Position numbers and translations under genes: made by a program
Virus record (IMG/VR): IMGVR_UViG_3300022719_000071
Location: 192,001-256,000 of that record
Strand: one strand, 5' to 3'
DNA from: a virus
Lineage: Duplodnaviria > Caudoviricetes
Length of the DNA: 64,000 nucleotides
Part shown: positions 13,601-62,659 of the stretch, in pieces
How positions within the stretch are numbered: position 1 is the stretch's first letter
How the letters are laid out: every line of letters begins with the position of its first letter
Notes under the pieces: generated by a model
What the model was told of the DNA's origin: nothing
Seen by the model: the letters and a program-made list of their open reading frames with translations, nothing else
Database searches by the model: none

Positions 13601-14608
13601 ATGAGCAAGAAGTTTCAAGCATATCTCGCTGAACAGGATGAAGAGTTCACTTACAACATTAAGTCGAGCCGTCATATCCACAACGACGAGACATTCTACA
13701 ACCTACAGCTAGGTCTGTTAGGTTATGATTTGCGCTCTCTTGAGAGAATTTCCTACAACCCACTTGCTGCCTATGAGCCTATGTTCCCACCAAGCCACGA
13801 TGAGCCCGGTATCGATACCGTATTTCACGTGAAGGCTGTCCTGGGAACGGAAGTCCCAAATGAAGTATTACGCCAGAAGATTGCCTACTTCACCGATATT
13901 CATTGGGAGTGGATCGCAGTTTACCGTGAGGGAGAGAAGTGGGAAGGCAATGATCCACTAAACATGGCTGATGAAGAGGGTGGAGAGTATAAGAATCTTA
14001 CACATACGGCTAAGGACTGGAATGGTACCCCAGATGATGGTGACATCGATCCAGACGCTCAGAAGTACGTAGGGACGGCCAGACTGGCTGATTTCATGAA
14101 GGAGCTAGAGACCGACCGCAAGACACGTGAAGCGGAAATCAATGATAGAAATGTGACTCCTAAACTATACGAATCTTTTGTTACTACTCACCTGTGCATG
14201 CATGACATGCTTGGTCACACCCCTCGCAAGGGATACTATCTACTGGAACGTTACACAGTAGATCCCAGCGTGGTCCACGTGTCGGGTCCGTTCAAGAACA
14301 AGCCAATGACCCATGAGTTCGTTTCTGATCTGTTGAAGCGTGGTCGTGGAACATTCAAGGTTCTTGATGAAAACAAGGTTAAGCTGGAAGGACACGACCG
14401 GGATTTTCGCTACACCAAGACGCTTCGTGAGCAAAACCTGAAGAACTACGAGGTCATGGTTAAAGACCAGGATACTGGTAGGTCTTATACTGCTTTAATC
14501 AAGGCGTTTACTGAGACTGATGCACGAGCTAAGGCTGTACGCCGAGTAGCACAAAAAGAAAAACTGGACGCTGGTAGACTGATTGCGATTGAACCCGAGG
14601 CAGCATAA
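13601..14608 (+). CDS. Conserved virion/head-associated hypothetical protein
   Basis: TAAATA at 13570; N-terminus MSKKFQAYLAE resembles T4 capsid-targeting leaders. Confidence 0.6.
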   Translation: MSKKFQAYLAEQDEEFTYNIKSSRHIHNDETFYNLQLGLLGYDLRSLERISYNPLAAYEPMFPPSHDEPGIDTVFHVKAVLGTEVPNEVLRQKIAYFTDIHWEWIAVYREGEKWEGNDPLNMADEEGGEYKNLTHTAKDWNGTPDDGDIDPDAQKYVGTARLADFMKELETDRKTREAEINDRNVTPKLYESFVTTHLCMHDMLGHTPRKGYYLLERYTVDPSVVHVSGPFKNKPMTHEFVSDLLKRGRGTFKVLDENKVKLEGHDRDFRYTKTLREQNLKNYEVMVKDQDTGRSYTALIKAFTETDARAKAVRRVAQKEKLDAGRLIAIEPEAA

Positions 14609-17600
14609 TGCCACGTTTGGCCGAAGACGAAGGCGGCAAGATCAAGCCGTCTGGCTATCAACAAGAGTATACCACTAAGCAAATCGAAGAGCTTCTTCGA
14701 TGTGCCAATGATGCTGTATATTTTATTCGTGAGTATGTATACATCCAGCATCCAACTCGTGGTGCTGTGAAGTTTAACTTGTTTGATTACCAGGAAAGTC
14801 TAGTCGATTGCTACAATAGCAATCGACTTGTAATCGCTCTGCTGTCTCGTCAGTGTGGTAAAACCGCAACCGCTGCTGCTTACCTTTTGTGGTATGCCAT
14901 TTTCAAGGACGATCAGCATATCTTAATTGCTTCCAAGGATCACGATGGTGCCAAGGACATCATGAGTCGTCTGTGGTATGCTTACGAAGAACTACCATGG
15001 TGGTTAAAACCAGGATGCAAGGTCAATCAGGTTCACACTAAAGAATTTGACAACAACTCCAAACTACTTGCTACTGCGACCACAGCAACGTCCGGTCGAG
15101 GTAAGTCCAACTCACTAATCTACCTGGACGAGTTTGCATTCGTTCGTCCTGGTATCGCAAACGAGTTTTGGACAGCCATTTACCCGACTATTGCATGCGT
15201 GTCTGGTGATACACTAGTTTTTACTCAAAGGGGATTTGAAAGAATAGGGAATCTACACTCTGGATGGAAAACCGGAGACTATAAGGAACGAAATGACCTT
15301 ATGATCTATGGAAAAGAAGGAATGGAAAAGGTTTCTCATGGATACGTAAGTCCGTTTTCTGCTACTAAAAAGATTACAACTTCCAAAGGCAGATTTTTGG
15401 AGGCTACTTTAGATCACCCCCTATATGTTCCAAGAAGCTATAGCGGGGAAATGGTTAAGGCAAAAAACTTAACCACTAATGATTACCTAAGAGTTGATGT
15501 GGGGTTAAACCTATTCGGTAATATTACATTGACACCGGATGATGCCTACATGTTAGGAGGATACACCGCCGAAGGGTGGGTATCCGGTAACAACGGAAAA
15601 AAATCTACGGTATGGATCTCAAATACCGATTCTGAATTTAGAAATGTATTCCTGAAAAGAAAAAAAGAATCATTCAGGGTATCTAATTCAGAGCCCACAA
15701 AATTATATTGTACCAGTTCTAAATTAGTATTTCAACTTTCTGAGTGGGGAGTTGATTTACATGCCAAGTGTTACGATAAAAGAGTACCAGATGCAATTCT
15801 TCAAGGTACTAGAGAAACAATTACAAATTACCTATCAGGACTATTTGATGGTGACGGGTGTGCTTGTAATAAAGGGGTGATTTTAACATCAACTAGCCTT
15901 GAGTTATTGAGAGATGTACAATTATTGTTAACAAATCTTGGTTTCCTCCCGGATATTATTCCTAATAAAGAACAGAAATCAAGGGTAATAGCTGACAACC
16001 GAGCTATAACCGAATGCTTCCGTCCTTCTTGGAATCTGTACATACCGTTGAGTCAAACTCAAATGTTTCTTGATATTATTGGATTTAGAATCAACAAAAA
16101 AACGACGGCAGCCAACAGGGTATGTTTTATACGGAATCAGGATGATTCTAAATTGTTTACGATTCCTGTTCGGCATATACGCTCAACCTTAGTGGATCTT
16201 TTAACAGAATCAGGTAAATCCAAAAACTGGTGGAGAACACACGGTCGAAGATTTGACAAATGTTTGGATAATCATCCGAACAGACATGTTACCGTCAATT
16301 GGCTTCGTGGTGTTGAATCTATTGTACGTCATAAATTGTCTCACCTACTAGAGAAATTTGAGGTATTCTTTCAGGAGTATTGTAGGAATTCTACTTGGGA
16401 ACGCATAGCTTACATTGAAGATGGTTCATGCATCACATATGATTTTACCGTCCCTGGTACTCATACCTTTGCACAGAATGGAATGATTGGTTCTAATACT
16501 GGTGGTAAATGTATTATCACATCAACCCCGAACACAGACGAAGACAAATTCGCCTCCATTTGGTTCAACTCTACTAGGCATCCAAGCTCAGATGTTTGGA
16601 GAGATGTGTTTGCTGAAAGGCAGATGTTGGACGTTCCTGATGAAAATACTGAAGAATACGATATCGAGTATGAAACTGAAGACGCTCGTATGCTGTATAG
16701 CAGCAAGGAAGAAGATCTGGACATCGGTGACGATGACACTCTGGAAGGCTTTATTGGTTTCCATGCCCACTGGTCTAGGATCCCAGACGGTCGTGGAGGA
16801 TTTCGTGATGAAAAATTCAAGCGTCAGGTTCTTTCTTCGGGTTTGACTGAGGAGGAATGGCTACGTGAGTATGAGTGTGCATTCGTTTCCGGAGACTCCA
16901 CCTTGATTTCGGCTGCCAAGATGGCCACATTTCGTCAGACTGTTCGTAAGCCTCAATTCATCGATAAATGGGGAATGCGTTGGTACGAGGAGATTCTTCC
17001 GAACCAAATCTATGGTGTGGTTCTTGATCCCTCAGAAGGTGTGGCTGCGGACGATGCGTGTATTCAGGTGTGGGAGATTCCACAGATGACACAGGTAGCA
17101 GAGTGGAACAACAACTACGTGGATCAGGTTGAGCAGACCAAAATGCTTCGTCGTACCTTGAAGCGCATCTTCATGATTCAGATGAATGATCCTGCACACG
17201 AAGGTGGATGCCAAACTTATTACTCTGTAGAGAGGAATGGACTTGGTATCGGTATCTTGAATGCCATCGAGTACGAAGACGAGATGACTTTCCCAGGTTT
17301 CCTCATTGACTCGACCATGACTTCTATTAACGTTCTTGGTGGAGGTATGGATACCAAGGTGACAAACAGGTGGCGTGGCCTTTTGACCAGTGTATCCAGT
17401 AAAAAGCGTTATGCTGTGGAGTTTAAGAACCTCGTGGAGAGAAATCTGTTTGTGGTTCGCTCCAAGCATTTAGCCTCGCAGCTAAAGACATTTGTCAAAA
17501 GCGGACAGTCGTATGCAGCAAAGGAAGGAGCCAAGGACGATATCGTGATGTCCTGTATTCTCATGTGTCACCTTGTAGATGAAATTAGGTACCATGAACC

Positions 17601-17703
17601 AGACCTGGATGACCTGATTCGCCCTGACATAGATGATTATGATCCCGACGACTTTGATCATCCGGATAATATCGCTTTACCGCCTACTGTATCGATATCT
17701 TGA
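14608..17703 (+). CDS. gp17: Terminase large subunit (gp17-like) containing one intein
   Basis: LLSRQCGKT (Walker A), IYLDEFAFV (Walker B), GGKCIITSTPN, VLDPSEGV..D, VERNGLG, DDIVM nuclease motifs. Confidence 0.95.
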   Translation: MPRLAEDEGGKIKPSGYQQEYTTKQIEELLRCANDAVYFIREYVYIQHPTRGAVKFNLFDYQESLVDCYNSNRLVIALLSRQCGKTATAAAYLLWYAIFKDDQHILIASKDHDGAKDIMSRLWYAYEELPWWLKPGCKVNQVHTKEFDNNSKLLATATTATSGRGKSNSLIYLDEFAFVRPGIANEFWTAIYPTIACVSGDTLVFTQRGFERIGNLHSGWKTGDYKERNDLMIYGKEGMEKVSHGYVSPFSATKKITTSKGRFLEATLDHPLYVPRSYSGEMVKAKNLTTNDYLRVDVGLNLFGNITLTPDDAYMLGGYTAEGWVSGNNGKKSTVWISNTDSEFRNVFLKRKKESFRVSNSEPTKLYCTSSKLVFQLSEWGVDLHAKCYDKRVPDAILQGTRETITNYLSGLFDGDGCACNKGVILTSTSLELLRDVQLLLTNLGFLPDIIPNKEQKSRVIADNRAITECFRPSWNLYIPLSQTQMFLDIIGFRINKKTTAANRVCFIRNQDDSKLFTIPVRHIRSTLVDLLTESGKSKNWWRTHGRRFDKCLDNHPNRHVTVNWLRGVESIVRHKLSHLLEKFEVFFQEYCRNSTWERIAYIEDGSCITYDFTVPGTHTFAQNGMIGSNTGGKCIITSTPNTDEDKFASIWFNSTRHPSSDVWRDVFAERQMLDVPDENTEEYDIEYETEDARMLYSSKEEDLDIGDDDTLEGFIGFHAHWSRIPDGRGGFRDEKFKRQVLSSGLTEEEWLREYECAFVSGDSTLISAAKMATFRQTVRKPQFIDKWGMRWYEEILPNQIYGVVLDPSEGVAADDACIQVWEIPQMTQVAEWNNNYVDQVEQTKMLRRTLKRIFMIQMNDPAHEGGCQTYYSVERNGLGIGILNAIEYEDEMTFPGFLIDSTMTSINVLGGGMDTKVTNRWRGLLTSVSSKKRYAVEFKNLVERNLFVVRSKHLASQLKTFVKSGQSYAAKEGAKDDIVMSCILMCHLVDEIRYHEPDLDDLIRPDIDDYDPDDFDHPDNIALPPTVSIS
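15196..16497 (+). mobile_element. Intein (434 aa) with LAGLIDADG homing endonuclease, inserted at PTIA|TGGK
   Basis: Starts CVSGDTLV; block B ATLDHPLY; YMLGGYTAEG and YLSGLFDGDG; ends TYDFTV...NGMIGSN followed by Thr; AT-rich. Confidence 0.92.
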
Positions 17704-57724: not shown

Positions 57725-58834
57725 ATGCAAACATACCCGACCCTGTACTCTCGTGACACCATTGGCAACATCCGTGTCTGGTGGATGGAACGTGATGGTT
57801 TTCACTATCGCACCGCATCTGGTATCAAGGATGGAGAGATCGTGCATTCGGAGTGGCGTCGTGCGTACGTGACGAACCAAGGCAAGGCCAACGAACGTTC
57901 CGCCGAGATCCAAGCCGACGCCGAAATCAAATCGTCATACGACAAGAAGCTACGCATGAAGTACCACGAGGCTGAGGCTGACGTGGACAAGGACAAGTAT
58001 TTCAAGCCGATGCTCGCCAAGGAGTTCGGCAAGGAAACTTCCAAGAAGGGCGTTTCCTTCCCCGTGCACAGCCAACCGAAGCTGGATGGCATTCGTTGCC
58101 TTGTCACCGCCGAGGGTGCATGGTCCCGCACAGGCAAGCCTATTCTGGCGATTCCGCACATCCTGGAGGCCCTGGCTCCACTGTTTGCGAAAGACCCCGA
58201 TCTAGTACTCGACGGCGAGCTGTACAATCACGACCTGAAGGATGACTTTAATACCATCACGTCCGTGGTTCGCAAACTGGAGCCTAATCCCGAGCAGCTT
58301 GCTGATTCAGCACGCCTGATTCAGTATCACGTGTACGACTGTCCGTCCGTGGATGGATCATTTGAAATTCGCATTAATACTCTGGTTGCTCTGCTGATGA
58401 ACATGCCCGAGTGTGTCGTTCTGGTGGACACGCAGTTTGTGTTGGATCAGGAGACTCTGGATTTCTTGTACGCTGAGTACATGAAGAACGGCTACGAGGG
58501 ACAGATGGTGCGCCTGGGTGGAACCTACGAGCAGAAGCGCTCGAAGTTCCTATTGAAGCGCAAAGAGTTCAAGGATGCCGAGTTCGAGATCGTGGAGGTA
58601 AAGTCGGGGCAAGGGAATTGGGAAGGTTACGCCAAGACCCTGACCGTGCGTCTTCCTGACGGCAGAACGTGCGATTCGGGTATGCGTGGTAATCAGCAGT
58701 ACCTGAAGGAAGTACTGGAGAACGCTGACTCCTATGTCGGCAAGCAGGCGACCATTCGCTACCAGGATCTGACTCCGGACGGCAAGCTTAGGTTTCCTGT
58801 TGCCGTGGCGCTGCACCTGGAGGAGCGCTGGTGA
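57725..58834 (+). CDS. lig: ATP-dependent DNA ligase
   Basis: QPKLDGIRC (KxDG), LDGELY, YHVYD, GYEGQMVR, LLKRKEFKDAE, LRFPV. Confidence 0.95.
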   Translation: MQTYPTLYSRDTIGNIRVWWMERDGFHYRTASGIKDGEIVHSEWRRAYVTNQGKANERSAEIQADAEIKSSYDKKLRMKYHEAEADVDKDKYFKPMLAKEFGKETSKKGVSFPVHSQPKLDGIRCLVTAEGAWSRTGKPILAIPHILEALAPLFAKDPDLVLDGELYNHDLKDDFNTITSVVRKLEPNPEQLADSARLIQYHVYDCPSVDGSFEIRINTLVALLMNMPECVVLVDTQFVLDQETLDFLYAEYMKNGYEGQMVRLGGTYEQKRSKFLLKRKEFKDAEFEIVEVKSGQGNWEGYAKTLTVRLPDGRTCDSGMRGNQQYLKEVLENADSYVGKQATIRYQDLTPDGKLRFPVAVALHLEERW

Positions 58835-59022
58835 GCGAAATGAAGAAGCCTACTGACATCATTGTTGATATTCATCGTGAACTTGAGGCTCTTGCGGAGG
58901 CTGCTGTACAGGAACAGCATGCTGATGCCAGCCGTGTTGATAGCACACTCGACTACTACGAGGATGAATTTGCGAAATGGATCGTAGCCAAATTTAAGAA
59001 GGAAGTTCTAGATGAAAATTAA
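58831..59022 (+). CDS. Small acidic hypothetical protein
   Basis: 63 aa, GGAGG RBS, coupled to both neighbours. Confidence 0.55.
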   Translation: MSEMKKPTDIIVDIHRELEALAEAAVQEQHADASRVDSTLDYYEDEFAKWIVAKFKKEVLDEN

Positions 59023-59368
59023 GGTCTTTCTGGACGACGTGCGTAAGGAGCCTGTTGGATGGGTACGGGCGCACACGGCCCAGGACGCTATCGAGTGGCT
59101 TCAGGAGAGAGAGGTAAGCCACATCAGCCTGGACCATGACCTGGGTTCAGAAGAGGCTGGTACTGGCTACGACGTGTTGAAGTGGATTGAGAGGGAGGTC
59201 GCCATGGCTGGTTATGAGCCTCCGCACATGACCATTCATTCTGCCAATCCAGTGGGTCGTAAGCGCATGGAGATGGCGATCCAGAGCATCCTGCGTCTGT
59301 ATGAGGTAGCTAACATGGAGTACCAGGAGGATGGATATAGCGGCCCTGGTGAAGATAATTGGGACTAA
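59012..59368 (+). CDS. Cyclic-phosphate-processing receiver-like domain protein
   Basis: VFLDDVR..P.GW, ISLDHDLG, TGYDVLKWIE, IHSANPVGR.RM. Confidence 0.7.
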   Translation: MKIKVFLDDVRKEPVGWVRAHTAQDAIEWLQEREVSHISLDHDLGSEEAGTGYDVLKWIEREVAMAGYEPPHMTIHSANPVGRKRMEMAIQSILRLYEVANMEYQEDGYSGPGEDNWD

Positions 59369-59372
59369 CCTC

Positions 59373-59401
59373 TTGACTTCTTGTTGGGACAATGATAAAT
59401 A
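59373..59401 (+). promoter_or_regulatory. Hybrid promoter of tRNA/ncRNA cluster 2
   Basis: TTGACT-N17-TAAATA. Confidence 0.7.
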
Positions 59402-59404
59402 TAG

Positions 59405-59630
59405 ACTGTGCATTGCTTAGTAGCGGTCTACCACGGGATACACCGGGAGGAGTGAACGCAGTGTGACCGAGTGTGAAGATTCAGACGGCGACCTGTGATG
59501 TGTCAATTCTAAGCAGGAAAGCCCTCTGACATAAGACGTTTGTATCGGATCACTTGAAGAATTGACTGTAACTCACGGCAGCCAGATAAAGGCAGGTTCG
59601 TGAGCGGTGGGATGGAAGTTCCCGCCTATT
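59405..59630 (+). ncRNA. Candidate structured ncRNA (unknown class) upstream of tRNA-Asp
   Basis: No ORF; long-range helices GTCAATTCT/AGAATTGAC and CTCACG/CGTGAG; terminal GGTGGGA-TGGAAGT-TCCCGCC hairpin. Confidence 0.5.
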
Positions 59631-59632
59631 AC

Positions 59633-59710
59633 GGTTGTGTAGCTCAATCTGGTTAGAGCACTCCCCTGTCACGGGAAAGGTTGAGGGTTCGAATCCCTTC
59701 ACGACCGCCA
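59633..59710 (+). tRNA. tRNA-Asp(GTC)
   Basis: GGTTGTG/CACGACC; anticodon arm CTCCC-CTGTCAC-GGGAA; GAGGG-TTCGAAT-CCCTT; G-CCA. Confidence 0.9.
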
Positions 59711-59831
59711 ATTTAGAGAAACACATCGCCTGTCTGAGCTTTGTGTGGGGACCATACCACTAGGTTGATAGTGGACAGACCGAGACCACGGGCTTATGTC
59801 ACGTGGGATGCAATGGAAGTTTGCAATTAAT

Positions 59832-59910
59832 GGCCCGTTAGCATAGTCTGTCCTAATGCGCCAGCTTGTCACGCTGGAGATCAAGGGTTAGAATCCCTTA
59901 CGGGTCGCCA
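59832..59910 (+). tRNA. tRNA-Asp(GTC), variant copy
   Basis: GGCCCGT/ACGGGTC; anticodon arm CCAGC-TTGTCAC-GCTGG; T-loop TTAGAAT; D-loop lacks GG; G-CCA. Confidence 0.72.
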
Positions 59911-59939
59911 AGTTTTTGGCCAACATGGAAGTTCCTTGT

Positions 59940-60078
59940 CAACGTGGTATCAGCGTAAATGACGGGTCGGCCAAGGGGAGTTGTGTGACTTCACTCTCGC
60001 CAAACTCTCTGGAAGGAGAGCTAATATTAAAAGGCCGAAAAGTGATACTGGAGTTCTGTGATTGAATACTCCATTTAA
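59940..60078 (+). ncRNA. Candidate multibranch structured RNA (unknown class)
   Basis: Nested helices GGTATCA/TGATACT, TCGGCC/GGCCGA, GGGAGT/ACTCTC, CTCTC-TGGAAG-GAGAG, then TGGAGT/ACTCCA. Confidence 0.45.
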
Positions 60079-60080
60079 CC

Positions 60081-60188
60081 ATGGTTTTGTTTGTGAAGTT
60101 CGATCACCCGGTGCCTGGGGTTACAAGGCTGATTATGGTTTTGTTTGTGAAATTCGATCACCCGGTGCCTGGGGTTACAAGGCTGATT
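60081..60188 (+). repeat. Tandem duplication of a 54-bp unit
   Basis: 60081-60134 and 60135-60188 are identical except one base (GAAGTT vs GAAATT). Confidence 0.95.
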
Positions 60189-60287
60189 TTTGCTTTAAAA
60201 TAGATATTATTTTATTATAAAAGTCACCGTGACTGCGACTGGATGAGGAAGCCATTTCGCAGATTCCTATGGAAGTTGGGTAAGTTT

Positions 60288-60364
60288 CAGGGTATAGCTC
60301 AGACTGGTAGAGCGCTCGTTTCGGATACGAGAGGCCGCAGGTTCAAATCCTGCTACCCTGACCA
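60288..60364 (+). tRNA. tRNA-Pro(CGG)
   Basis: CAGGGTA/TACCCTG with A73; anticodon arm CTCGT-TTCGGAT-ACGAG; GCAGG-TTCAAAT-CCTGC; CCA. Confidence 0.9.
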
Positions 60365-60366
60365 CG

Positions 60367-60389
60367 ACATGGCGTAGCTCAGTCTGGTT
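60367..60389 (+). pseudogene. Truncated 5' fragment of a tRNA
   Basis: ...ATGGCG-TAGCTCAGTCTGGTT (acceptor strand plus D-arm start) breaks off 14 nt before the stop of the convergent LamG gene. Confidence 0.5.
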
Positions 60390-60402
60390 TCTAGGTGGAT
60401 TA

Positions 60403-61236
60403 TTACGGGAAGATTCCGAATGCACCAGCGTTATAGTGATTTAAAACCTCTGTTGGTGTGAGCACACGATCATAGATAGCAAGTTCATCCACAATACCTT
60501 CTAGTGCTGTAGCAGGCTGTGGTCCCTGCAACGATCCATTGTTATATTCGTTTCCAATCAAACCTCCTGGTGCTTGACCGGAGACTGGTGTGTATTTAAT
60601 ATCACCAGTCTTGGTATCACTGGCGTCGAGTACTCCGTTGACGTAGAGAATACGACTTCCAGAGGTATATGTTCCAACCACGTGATATATTGAGCCTGCC
60701 GGAAAGACATTTCCTTGAAGGTAAGCATTACCTGCGGTGTTTTGGTTAGGACCATCAACGGTACCGAGATAGAAACGGAATGTACCAACGTTAAATCCGT
60801 AAATTAATTTGTATCCAGAGAAATCCAAAGTGCTCCCTGAAGCGTATTGAATGAGCGCTTCGTTCACATTGGGTGGTTTACACCAACATTCGATGGAAAC
60901 CGTCTTGGTTGGTTCCAAGATGGAACTCTGACCAAAGTTCCAATGGTCTGCTAGGGCGTTGTTACCCCCGACTGCTCCATCATTATCTGAAGCACCAGAA
61001 ATTAATCCAGGCTCACCGTAACGCATAGGAGCACCATTCTCAGTAGCTGTGAAACCATTACCCGAAGAATCAGCCAAAGTAGGACCAGAAGATTCACCAG
61101 CACGCCAGTAAGCAATTGGACCATCTTGTAGAATCAGAGATTCATAGGTCATTGGGCCGGATGGACCCAAACTGAGTATACCGCCGTTACTGACAATAAT
61201 TGAAGAACCGTTTTCGATTATAATTATTCCAGACAT
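60403..61236 (-). CDS. LamG/concanavalin A-like lectin domain protein, late; candidate virion decoration
   Basis: PIAYWR..E.SG....DSSGNG, SIECW, YHVVGTY, LYVNGV, F/LEG.VDELAIYDRVLT..EV..HY; TAAATA at 61262 (-); ATG 61236. Confidence 0.82.
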   Translation of the reverse strand: MSGIIIIENGSSIIVSNGGILSLGPSGPMTYESLILQDGPIAYWRAGESSGPTLADSSGNGFTATENGAPMRYGEPGLISGASDNDGAVGGNNALADHWNFGQSSILEPTKTVSIECWCKPPNVNEALIQYASGSTLDFSGYKLIYGFNVGTFRFYLGTVDGPNQNTAGNAYLQGNVFPAGSIYHVVGTYTSGSRILYVNGVLDASDTKTGDIKYTPVSGQAPGGLIGNEYNNGSLQGPQPATALEGIVDELAIYDRVLTPTEVLNHYNAGAFGIFP

Positions 61237-61298
61237 TTGAAATTTCCAAGTTCTTTTGTTATATTTACTGTTCCATCTTAACAACTCGGTCATTAGTC

Positions 61299-61733
61299 AT
61301 GCAAAACCCAGATCCTCATAATCGAGGCATGGAAGCTGTCAAGCTTGCTCATCAATACACCTGGAGACAACAGAAGAGGCTGTTCCCGGTTACTGTTGGC
61401 ATCCTGACATGGATGATGGGATACAGCTTGCTGACGTTCAGCTTTTTCCCTCTGTTTCAACTCAACATCCTTTCGTGGGTAATACTTATGGCCATTATGT
61501 TTTTGACCAGGAAAAAACTGAACGAAGAATTTCTTGAATACTTGAAATGCCAGAGAATTGGAAAAGAGATGGACTGGAAGACGGTCGTCTATAACGGATG
61601 GTTGAACTATGCTGCCACGCTAATCTGCCTGTATTGGGTTTTGATGATCGCTTGGATTTCGTTCTTTATGCCGGAAGGTGGAATCTATGAACTTTACGAG
61701 ATGGATCCCACCAACAAACCCTTGACTTCCTAA
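61299..61733 (+). CDS. Multi-pass membrane protein
   Basis: Three to four hydrophobic segments; 144 aa. Confidence 0.65.
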   Translation: MQNPDPHNRGMEAVKLAHQYTWRQQKRLFPVTVGILTWMMGYSLLTFSFFPLFQLNILSWVILMAIMFLTRKKLNEEFLEYLKCQRIGKEMDWKTVVYNGWLNYAATLICLYWVLMIAWISFFMPEGGIYELYEMDPTNKPLTS

Positions 61734-61752
61734 CCCTAACTACCTATAAATA
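61722..61752 (+). promoter_or_regulatory. Hybrid promoter of tRNA cluster 3
   Basis: TTGACT-N17-TATAAATA. Confidence 0.75.
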
Positions 61753-61949
61753 CAACATGCAACGACGGTATCCTGTCGCATTGTGTTTACCATCATAAAG
61801 TGTGCACACTTTATTGATGAGAATGAGGCTTTTTATGTGAGATTTTGCGCCTCGTGTTATGGACATAATAAGTTTGTCATAGCACACCAGACATTGAATC
61901 TGGGTAAGCAGCAACCTATTCATTCATTAATGGGAATGAAGTTGTACCA

Positions 61950-62022: not shown

Positions 62023-62102
62023 ATTGGATAAATCATCACCGTGACTGCGATGGAGGATACATACGCAGATATCGATGGAAGTTCGATAAAATTGCAGACA
62101 CT

Positions 62103-62181
62103 CAGGGTATAGCTCAGTCTGGTCAGAGCGCTGGTCTTGGGAACCAGAGGTCCGCAGGTTCGAATCCTGCTACCCTGACCA
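62103..62181 (+). tRNA. tRNA-Pro(TGG)
   Basis: CAGGGTA/TACCCTG with A73; anticodon arm CTGGT-CTTGGGA-ACCAG; GCAGG-TTCGAAT-CCTGC; CCA. Confidence 0.92.
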
Positions 62182-62314
62182 AATCTTGTACTAAATGCTT
62201 ACAAGAAAAGTCGTTAACCGAATTTCCGGATTAGGAGTCGATCCAAAGGGACTTATCAATCATGGTGTAATCGGCACATATTCAGAACTCATGGATATTC
62301 AACGGGAGATCCGA

Positions 62315-62659
62315 ATGAACATTTCAATGCTACTCAGGGCACTCCTGGGCGCACTGCTTCTAACGACAATGTCCGTTCAAGCGGACGAGCCCAAGACACT
62401 TCATCAATACCTTCTGGTGTCCGAGGTTGACTTCGTTCTAAATCATAGCACTCGTGTGCTCATCGTATTAAGTCCTGGAACCACAGGATGGACAACTCCA
62501 ACAGAAGCTTGTGCTGGCGTATCAAAGTTTGATACGATTGTTCGTAAGGTCGTCTTCACCGACGCCAGCACTACAACAGTTTCTACAGATCTTGTTTGGA
62601 ATTCTGACACACGAACCCTAACCAATCTTGGTGGCCGTAATGAAGCTACCTGCAACTAA
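62315..62659 (+). CDS. Secreted/periplasmic hypothetical protein
   Basis: ATG 62315 with GGGAG RBS; signal peptide ending SVQA. Confidence 0.65.
   Translation: MNISMLLRALLGALLLTTMSVQADEPKTLHQYLLVSEVDFVLNHSTRVLIVLSPGTTGWTTPTEACAGVSKFDTIVRKVVFTDASTTTVSTDLVWNSDTRTLTNLGGRNEATCN

Follow-up and report, generated by a model that had tools for sequence, protein, structure and literature searches.

In annotations of phage tRNA clusters, whatever is not a tRNA usually passes as junk, and the locus described here raises the question of what such junk may hold. The stretch of DNA under study (hereafter the window; 64,000 nucleotides, nt) corresponds to bases 192001-256000 of the 360,469-bp IMG/VR record IMGVR_UViG_3300022719_000071, the genome of a T4-like jumbo myophage with 42 tRNA genes. 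One of its tRNA operons has the order promoter-like box, 228-nt leader, tRNA-Asp, 121-nt spacer, tRNA-Asp, 377-nt spacer and tRNA-Pro. The leader and the two spacers (designated as spacers 1, 2 and 3) had been read from the letters alone as three multibranch noncoding structures of no recognised class (the original prediction). We found that they belong, as untranslated stretches, to a single phage tRNA operon, hold two conserved, uncatalogued RNA units and do not form one RNA class. The first unit is a two-hairpin module of ~60 nt in the 5' leaders of particular tRNAs, and the second is a multi-hairpin domain directly 3' of the second tRNA-Asp, referred to as element X. Both are structured RNAs embedded in the tRNA operon, and membership in no known family can be claimed for them.

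The leader module was defined by aligning ~70 nt upstream of the tRNA-Pro genes of related phages (described below) with four leaders of the window. From 5' to 3', it consists of a conserved flank, (G/A)UCACCGUGAC, hairpin 1 (HP1), 1-3 nt, hairpin 2 (HP2), a linker and the tRNA. HP1 has a stem of 5-6 bp (CCACG/CGUGG, UCACGA/UCGUGA, CUGCG/CGCAG or CUCACG/CGUGAG) and a variable loop of at least 11 nt, usually 11-21 nt. The stem of HP2 (4-7 bp) is free in sequence and visibly differs between almost all copies; it is closed by an invariant A-U pair and carries the 7-nt loop U-G-G-R-A-R-U, found as UGGAAGU, UGGGAAU or UGGAAAU. Among the 12 confident copies, this loop always has U1, G2, G3, A5 and U7, with a purine at each of positions 4 and 6. 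The single-stranded linker from the end of HP2 to the mature 5' end of the tRNA measures 5-14 nt, and HP2 never comes closer than 5 nt. The module is always oriented as its tRNA and its stems contain G-U pairs, both of which point to an element of the RNA level.

Four copies are present in the window, all on the plus strand and each abutting a tRNA gene detected by both ARAGORN and the Rfam tRNA model. Copy A (59558-59632) precedes tRNA-Asp(GUC) 1 (59633-59710; 65.7 bits with the Rfam model), copy B (59772-59831) precedes tRNA-Asp(GUC) 2 (59832-59910), and copy D (60219-60287) precedes tRNA-Pro(CGG) (60288-60364). Copy E (62031-62102) precedes tRNA-Pro(UGG) (62103-62181) in a second unit downstream, which comprises a promoter-like box at ~61722-61752, a tRNA-Leu at 61949 and this tRNA-Pro at 62103. 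In copy A, HP1 is formed by 59572-59577/59599-59604 and HP2 by 59606-59612/59620-59626, with the loop UGGAAGU at 59613-59619 and the linker at 59627-59632; the minimum free energy (MFE) fold gives both hairpins (z-score -2.46). The corresponding segments are 59786-59790/59802-59806 (HP1), 59809-59813/59821-59825 (HP2) and 59814-59820 (loop) in copy B (z-score -1.86), and 62045-62049/62064-62068, 62070-62075/62083-62088 and 62076-62082 in copy E. Copy D has the 5' flank UCACCGUGA at 60224-60232, HP1 at 60233-60238/60257-60262, HP2 at 60266-60269/60277-60280 and its loop at 60270-60276. The exact sequence ATGGAAGTT occurs 8 times in the 360-kb genome, 5 of them within these 2.5 kb, and four times it lies in a hairpin loop directly upstream of a tRNA with a different stem sequence each time.

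A covariance model (R1) was trained on seven Pro-leader copies from relatives and copy B, which itself scores 51.5 bits as a member of the training set. R1 recovered the held-out copies, namely copy L182b of a relative at 39.8 bits, copy E at 39.4 bits (E-value 1.9e-7), copy D at 28.2 bits (1.9e-4) and copy A at 27.5 bits (2.9e-4). Copies A, B, D and E are the only R1 copies in the 360-kb genome, three being found by the whole-genome search and copy D being added by the search of the window. The two-hairpin module is thus a conserved RNA element, and it matches no catalogued family: at the gathering score, the Rfam 15 covariance models matched only tRNAs in the window. With the threshold relaxed to E-values up to 10, the non-tRNA matches in 59300-60450 scored 14-20 bits against cut-offs of 35-70, and at E-values up to 1 the five relatives gave tRNAs only, plus two chance matches. 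The expectation of the original prediction that no non-tRNA family would be matched was borne out. Literature searches likewise found no description of such a leader element.

The relatives came from a single metagenome scan, in which 96 loci were collected and then filtered for tRNAs and stems. Five contigs with the window-like operon layout remained (L182, L214, L250, L257 and L260), in which a promoter box is followed by Asp, Asp, a spacer of ~250-330 nt, Pro, a membrane-protein open reading frame (ORF), a second promoter box, a spacer and Pro. Neighbouring proteins of the five are only 24-52% identical to those of the window; they are therefore diverged relatives, and the conservation of the RNA units is deep. 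The module occurs before tRNA-Pro only in these relatives, in 1-2 copies, and in 4 copies in the window. When IMG/VR was scanned with the patterns TCACCGTGACTGCGA, CCGTGACTGCG...TGGAAGT, TGGAAGT...GGGTATAGCTCAG and the tRNA-Pro 3' end, chance matches or unrelated phages only were obtained; synteny via the cREC protein and a topoisomerase subunit led to distant, non-syntenic loci without the motif. A generalised pattern yielded one other lineage, L167, with a hairpin before tRNA-Asp. Among the metagenome matches that were set aside, a tRNA-Lys(UUU) group corresponds to the C-terminus of a protein gene ending ...IMEV*, presumably ribosome recycling factor, and several others lie inside tRNA T-arms; a tRNA-Asn hairpin (L189, L228) was an ambiguous match. 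The sequence ATGGAAGCT at 61329 most likely represents no more than the surroundings of the start codon of the membrane-protein ORF.

Covariation was evaluated on 14 rows, i.e. the 12 confident copies and two marginal matches with E-values of 0.2-0.3. In this alignment, which was fitted to the model, consists of copies related to one another and yields numbers that lean towards structure, 87.6% of the cells at paired positions are paired, compared with 70.8% in shuffles and 20-45% in slid controls. Double compensatory changes are seen in 8 of the 11 module pairs. On four of five measures none of the 500 shuffles reached the observed value, and on pair types 19 of 500 did. These data bear on the idea that the module is a neutral or selfish small repeat, i.e. 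a duplicating sequence or a remnant of tRNA-gene rearrangements without function for the phage. Such an origin would be in line with the copy number differing by lineage (4 here vs 1-2 in relatives), with the lack of the module at some Pro genes and with an identical 17-mer, GGGATGGAAGTTCCCGC, before tRNA-Asp in an otherwise unrelated lineage (L167, L176, L204 and L266). However, diverged copies keep both helices by compensatory changes together with the invariant loop, and phages with only 24-52% protein identity have both kept the orthologous copies a and b, which indicates purifying selection and not recent mobility. We consider a neutral repeat very unlikely. The 17-mer hairpin itself lies 16-17 nt before tRNA-Asp(GUC) in L167 (3300-3345 of the reverse complement) and the three other members of this different tRNA-rich lineage; neither the tRNA nor the remaining leader sequence shows any special relationship to those of the window, and R1 has no match there.

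Element X (59911-60042, plus strand; z-score -2.25) is homologous in L182, L214, L250 and L257, with which the first ~130 nt after tRNA-Asp2 can be aligned. Conservation is found in four blocks, namely a short hairpin whose loop contains GGA, a longer stem-loop CC(C/U)...GGG, a UGUGAC hairpin and GGUCGAAAGC. In the window, they include X-HP1 (59922-59933, the GGA-loop hairpin), X-HP2 (59934-59966) and X-HP4 (59975-60001, with the UGUGAC loop), and the domain is closed by the helix 59913-59921/60033-60041. The stems of X-HP4 are different in all five sequences and still pair. On the RNAalifold structure, which was derived from the same alignment of five sequences, 91% of the cells are paired, compared with 28-46% in slid controls, and 8 of 18 pairs show compensatory changes. 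Element X is thus a conserved RNA domain, and it too has no match among catalogued families. The hairpin CUCUC-UGGAAG-GAGAG at 60005-60020 is an insertion inside X that occurs in the window only, since all four relatives are gapped at these alignment columns. A GC-rich hairpin with a U-rich tail, read by eye after X in L182, suggests that X may be a 3' trailer RNA.

The remainder of spacer 3 is variable. Its middle carries a tandem duplication of 2 x 54 nt (60081-60188, plus strand), found by a repeat search with 98% identity and not conserved in the relatives. The 54 nt correspond to 18 codons in perfect register inside a 40-codon ORF with an ATG start (60081-60203); the sole difference between the two copies, AAG/AAA, is synonymous in that frame, and the ORF has no Shine-Dalgarno sequence. 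The spacers had been described as ORF-free, which does not strictly hold for spacer 3: its plus strand carries ORFs of 49, 52 and 40 codons, none of which is conserved in the relatives. Sub-threshold tRNA matches, which would have pointed to decayed tRNAs, were not found in the window spacers. In two relatives, the spacer upstream of the second tRNA-Pro contains a shared block, GAACUGAGGACAGUUC(G/U)AAGGUGU.UCAUGUGACUUUU.CCC (L250:1010-1070 and L260:1385-1440), that adjoins a decayed tRNA T-arm; the same place is occupied by tRNA-Leu(UAA) in the window and by tRNA-Gln in L182.

With the two units delimited, the folds proposed for the whole spacers can be assessed. Most of the inverted repeats exist: GTCAATTCT (59502-59510) and AGAATTGAC (59558-59566) form a perfect 9-bp inverted repeat, CTCACG (59572-59577) and CGTGAG (59599-59604) are in place, CCACT/AGTGG is present in spacer 2, and GGTATCA (59947)/TGATACT (60043) and TCGGCC (59967)/GGCCGA (60033) are present in spacer 3. 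The GACATA/TATGTC helix assigned to spacer 2 is not present as written, as the letters there are GACCATA and a bulge would be needed; its partner TATGTC sits in the loop of the conserved HP1. A UGGAAG hairpin was indeed found in each spacer, at 59606-59626 (7-bp stem), 59809-59825 (5-bp stem) and 60005-60020, and two further ones lie beyond the segments first described, at 60266-60280 and 62070-62088. In the first two structures, the conserved share is the 3' end, and CTCACG/CGTGAG is HP1 of copy A. The third is covered by element X with different boundaries: there is a real conserved multi-hairpin domain at this place, but the outer helix GGTATCA/TGATACT is not conserved and the UGGAAG hairpin is the window-specific insertion.

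It is very doubtful that tRNA maturation frees every spacer in full as a separate multibranch RNA belonging to a new class, even though the quoted repeats mostly exist, the MFE folds use several of them and element X is a real multi-hairpin domain. The z-scores of the whole-spacer MFE against shuffles are -1.07, -0.81 and -2.08 for spacers 1, 2 and 3; those of spacers 1 and 2 are not significant, and their multibranch folds have no thermodynamic support (-0.82 and +0.48 for the 5' parts). Only the recurrent hairpin module and the domain 59911-60045 (z-score -2.25) stand out from chance, and their support is the comparative data. Apart from the leader module, the three spacers share no homology with each other; three comparable RNAs of one class are not what is present. 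The covariation expected of the spacers was found in the leader module and in element X, whereas the 5' parts of spacers 1 and 2 have no homologues from which it could be read.

These 5' parts are lineage-specific. The segment 59405-59557 (~150 nt; plus strand, z-score -0.82) of the Asp1 leader shows no similarity to the relatives or to the rest of the genome and has no support for a conserved fold, and the segment 59711-59771 (~60 nt; plus strand, z-score +0.48) of the Asp1-Asp2 spacer appears as filler; no homologue of either was found in any DNA searched. In the five related operons, the leader before Asp1 is ~25-80 nt and the Asp-Asp gap is 2-10 nt, so that both extra 5' parts are absent. 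As the window Asp1 and Asp2 genes are orthologous to the Asp genes of the relatives (82-84% and 72-74% identity), the window lineage has therefore gained modules and extra sequence before both Asp genes. The perfect 9-bp helix 59502/59558 could be real.

In keeping with the original prediction, the spacers are non-coding; all are on the tRNA strand, downstream of a single promoter-like site. This site, TTGACT-17 nt-TAAATA at 59373-59401 (plus strand), was read from the sequence and probably functions as a promoter at the head of the operon; a simple sigma-70 scan did not flag it. The orthologous operons of L182, L214, L257 and L260 are headed by the same cctcttgactt...gcttaaatag box, and other tRNA operons of this genome are also preceded by TTGAC...TATAAATA boxes. 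Since a promoter-like box heads them and no strong terminators were found, the Asp-Asp-Pro genes are probably co-transcribed, and it is reasonable to infer that the spacers would be released as discrete RNAs.

How the module might act is suggested by its place. The distance to the tRNA 5' end is short and fixed, which argues for a role on the precursor RNA, and the spacing of at least 5 nt leaves the leader nucleotides beside the RNase P site single-stranded. In its sequence signature, and in this signature only, HP2 matches the T-arm and T-loop of tRNA, with a short stem and a 7-nt loop in which all 12 confident copies have U1, A5 and a position-4 purine; a T-loop is defined as a loop closed by a U1-A5 reverse-Hoogsteen pair (PMC4810234). 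Unlike in the T-arm, loop positions 2 and 3 are GG rather than psi-C, the closing pair is A-U instead of G-C, and there is no cloverleaf. The phage encodes a full-length bacterial type A RNase P RNA, detected by a covariance model with 168.3 bits (cut-off 100) over model positions 1-367. It lies on the minus strand ~157 kb upstream of the window (G000:C1:34400-34757; locus L268:1501-1858), and it has a variant CR-I, GAGGAAGUUCGGG, and an insertion in P12.

Quite possibly, though we advance this tentatively, the leader module is a cis-acting pre-tRNA processing and stability tag that is read by RNase P or another RNA-binding factor. The module would act in cis on the precursor RNA, with HP2 at the upstream edge of the leader stretch contacted by RNase P. 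There, HP2 might serve as a docking or recognition tag, either for an RNase P holoenzyme containing the RNase P RNA that the phage encodes or for some other RNA-binding protein, and would set the efficiency or the order of 5' maturation. After cleavage, the hairpin would stay near the 3' end of the excised spacer and could cap it against 3' exonucleases, and the capped spacer, like element X, may then persist as a discrete RNA. To our knowledge, no conserved 5'-leader recognition element is known in bacterial pre-tRNA processing. Here, an invariant T-arm-like hairpin stands at a fixed short distance before particular tRNAs in a phage with its own RNase P RNA. If the module modulates RNase P or another processing factor, it would add a new control layer for phage-encoded tRNAs and offer a handle on why giant phages carry translation-related RNAs.

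Several observations weigh against the assignment as a processing tag. Besides the bias of the covariation alignment mentioned above, copy D is not the predicted MFE fold (z-score +0.18). The second Pro gene of L257 and the first Pro gene of L260 have no module, and 38 other tRNAs of this phage lack it; as some Pro genes of the relatives do without it, the module is therefore accessory and not required for tRNA-Pro maturation as such. Searches of the phage genome for a possible partner found no gene for RnpA (profile PF00825), and none for CsrA (PF02599), RegA or RegB. By reading, the phage RNase P RNA has no loop complementary to UGGAAGU. Mimicry of its CR-I through the shared 8-mer GGAAGUUC was also considered and dropped, since this 8-mer has 23 occurrences in the genome and is not significant.

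A stronger version of the processing tag would make the UGGAAGU hairpin a T-arm-like mark read by RNase P. Such marks on the leaders of selected pre-tRNAs would, together with the phage RNase P RNA and the borrowed host protein, constitute a private, phage-controlled channel of tRNA maturation, from which the excised spacers and X persist as small RNAs. We regard this version as distinctly unlikely; if true, RNase P would be shown to select substrates by a novel type of signal that lies in the 5' leader.

The GGA in the loops of HP2, X-HP1 and the 60005-60020 hairpin raises the alternative of a trans-acting decoy, in which these loops would bind a host regulator of the CsrA/RsmA type and, in the manner of CsrB and RsmZ, titrate it once the spacers are excised. 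GGA is also found in several HP1 loops, and the window operon has six GGA-loop sites. In the relatives, X-HP1 reads GCACGGAUGC, ACAUGGAUGU or GUACAGGAUGUAC, i.e. xCA-N-GGA-UG in a short hairpin near the CANGGAUG consensus, and we take it to resemble both the RsmE consensus and the CsrA consensus from systematic evolution of ligands by exponential enrichment (SELEX). With several GGA motifs in hairpin loops, the spacers are in this respect like CsrB, RsmY and RsmZ. They differ from these RNAs in density, with six GGA-loop hairpins in ~900 nt of spacer vs about 1 per 15-20 nt, and no Rfam match to CsrB, RsmY or RsmZ was obtained. Counted by eye, the GGA density is low, ~7 in the 228 nt of spacer 1 vs a rough expectation of ~4.5, and several HP1 loops have no GGA. 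The GGA sites of the window are tied to tRNA 5' ends, and this strict position together with the invariant nine-base AUGGAAGUU is not expected of a sponge. The phage itself has no CsrA gene (no match to PF02599). We regard a decoy as unlikely.

The pairing of two hairpins also recalls elements that act on transcription. In such a case, the RNA would act on RNA polymerase in the manner of put of HK022 or nut/boxB, and the long tRNA operon would resist Rho or terminators. The unit of ~60-65 nt with two adjacent hairpins and a 1-3 nt linker has the appropriate build, and its 5' side bears the conserved single-stranded flank UCACCGUGA. The transcripts around it are long and not translated, and the Asp2-Pro spacer of the relatives holds terminator-like hairpins. 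However, the module lies downstream, not upstream, of those terminator-like hairpins, and its distance from the 5' end of the tRNA is short and fixed. We know of no sequence resemblance of the module to put or boxA/boxB, and this also counts against a transcription-level element, which we consider very unlikely.

Further ideas about the leader were rejected. A leader peptide (MEV...) or leader-peptide attenuator does not fit, as the AUG of AUGGAAGUU opens frames of variable length (4-14 codons or more), there is no consistent Shine-Dalgarno sequence, and the loop variants change amino acids (E to G, V to I). Pairing of the leader with the 5' half of the tRNA was significant only for copy B (z-score -3.25), the 11 remaining copies showing no such signal. 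Nor are the tagged tRNAs set apart by an encoded CCA. In copy B, the 5' part (59773-59793) is 71% complementary over 21 nt to 59833-59853, the first 21 nt of tRNA-Asp2 with the 5' strand of the acceptor and the D-arm, and 1 of 300 shuffles gave a duplex as low.

Structured RNAs among phage tRNA genes have a precedent in the stable species 1 and 2 RNAs of T4 (rnaC and rnaD), which are non-tRNA RNAs of ~120-140 nt with unknown function in the T4 tRNA cluster, co-transcribed with the tRNAs and presumably freed by tRNA-processing enzymes. The window elements resemble them in their setting within a phage tRNA cluster, share the strand of the tRNAs and probably belong to their transcription unit; element X fits best. 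The leader module is unlike them in being much shorter, repeated and placed as a 5' leader, and a distant blastn search of 59300-60450 against 50,697 GenBank phage records matched tRNA parts only, with no sequence homology to T4 rnaC/rnaD. In E. coli, 3'ETS-leuZ is a processing by-product of a tRNA operon that persists and acts in trans by pairing with small RNAs and Hfq. The window elements are likewise transcribed spacers of a tRNA operon that would be released; unlike for 3'ETS-leuZ, no target complementarity or Hfq-type features were found for them. Should the excised pieces have a trans-acting role, the phage would possess its own equivalent of the regulatory RNAs that derive from such spacers. 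Thus, two RNA elements in the "junk" of a tRNA cluster have been kept by compensatory evolution across giant phages with 24-52% protein identity, and a usable covariance model and exact coordinates are the practical gain.

The T4-like character of the phage is evident from its tail sheath, a T4-type large terminase with an intein, a UvsW-like helicase and topoisomerase II subunits. The intein of the large terminase subunit (window 14608-17703) includes a LAGLIDADG homing-endonuclease domain. Immediately upstream of the operon, the gene at 59012-59368 encodes a stand-alone cREC_REC (cyclic-phosphate processing receiver) protein (PF20274, E-value 1e-29) and is preceded by an ATP-dependent DNA ligase gene (57725-58834); this linkage is not kept in the relatives found. 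Downstream of tRNA-Pro(CGG), a truncated 5' part of a tRNA gene (60368-60392; CATGGCGTAGCTCAGTCTGGT) matches the initial 21 nt of tRNA-Pro with 81% identity and ends at the 3' end of an oppositely oriented LamG-domain gene (60403-61293). As neither the tRNA fragment nor the LamG gene is present there in the relatives, a tRNA gene seems to have been the target into which the LamG gene was inserted. For the ORF that follows tRNA-Pro, one homologue with 96% identity was found, encoded on a JGI contig of 43 kb. After the second tRNA-Pro, L214, L250, L257 and L260 have an ORF starting MKH(N/T)GFTL(T/V)EL..., 31-43% homologous to window ORF 62195-62659; by eye, this start looks like the N-terminal methylation motif of a type IV pilin or pseudopilin.

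Among the other tRNA genes of the phage, ARAGORN reported one with the anticodon CUA (an amber suppressor, labelled 'Pyl') at genome 22700-22777 on the minus strand and one with the four-base anticodon CUUA at 277334-277409 on the plus strand. After long spacers, a GC-rich hairpin is also located 5-15 nt before several other tRNAs (for example, Gly-UCC, Arg-ACG, the CUA tRNA, His and Leu-CAA), with loops unrelated to that of HP2, and a hairpin close to the tRNA in the leader may be a general design in this phage.

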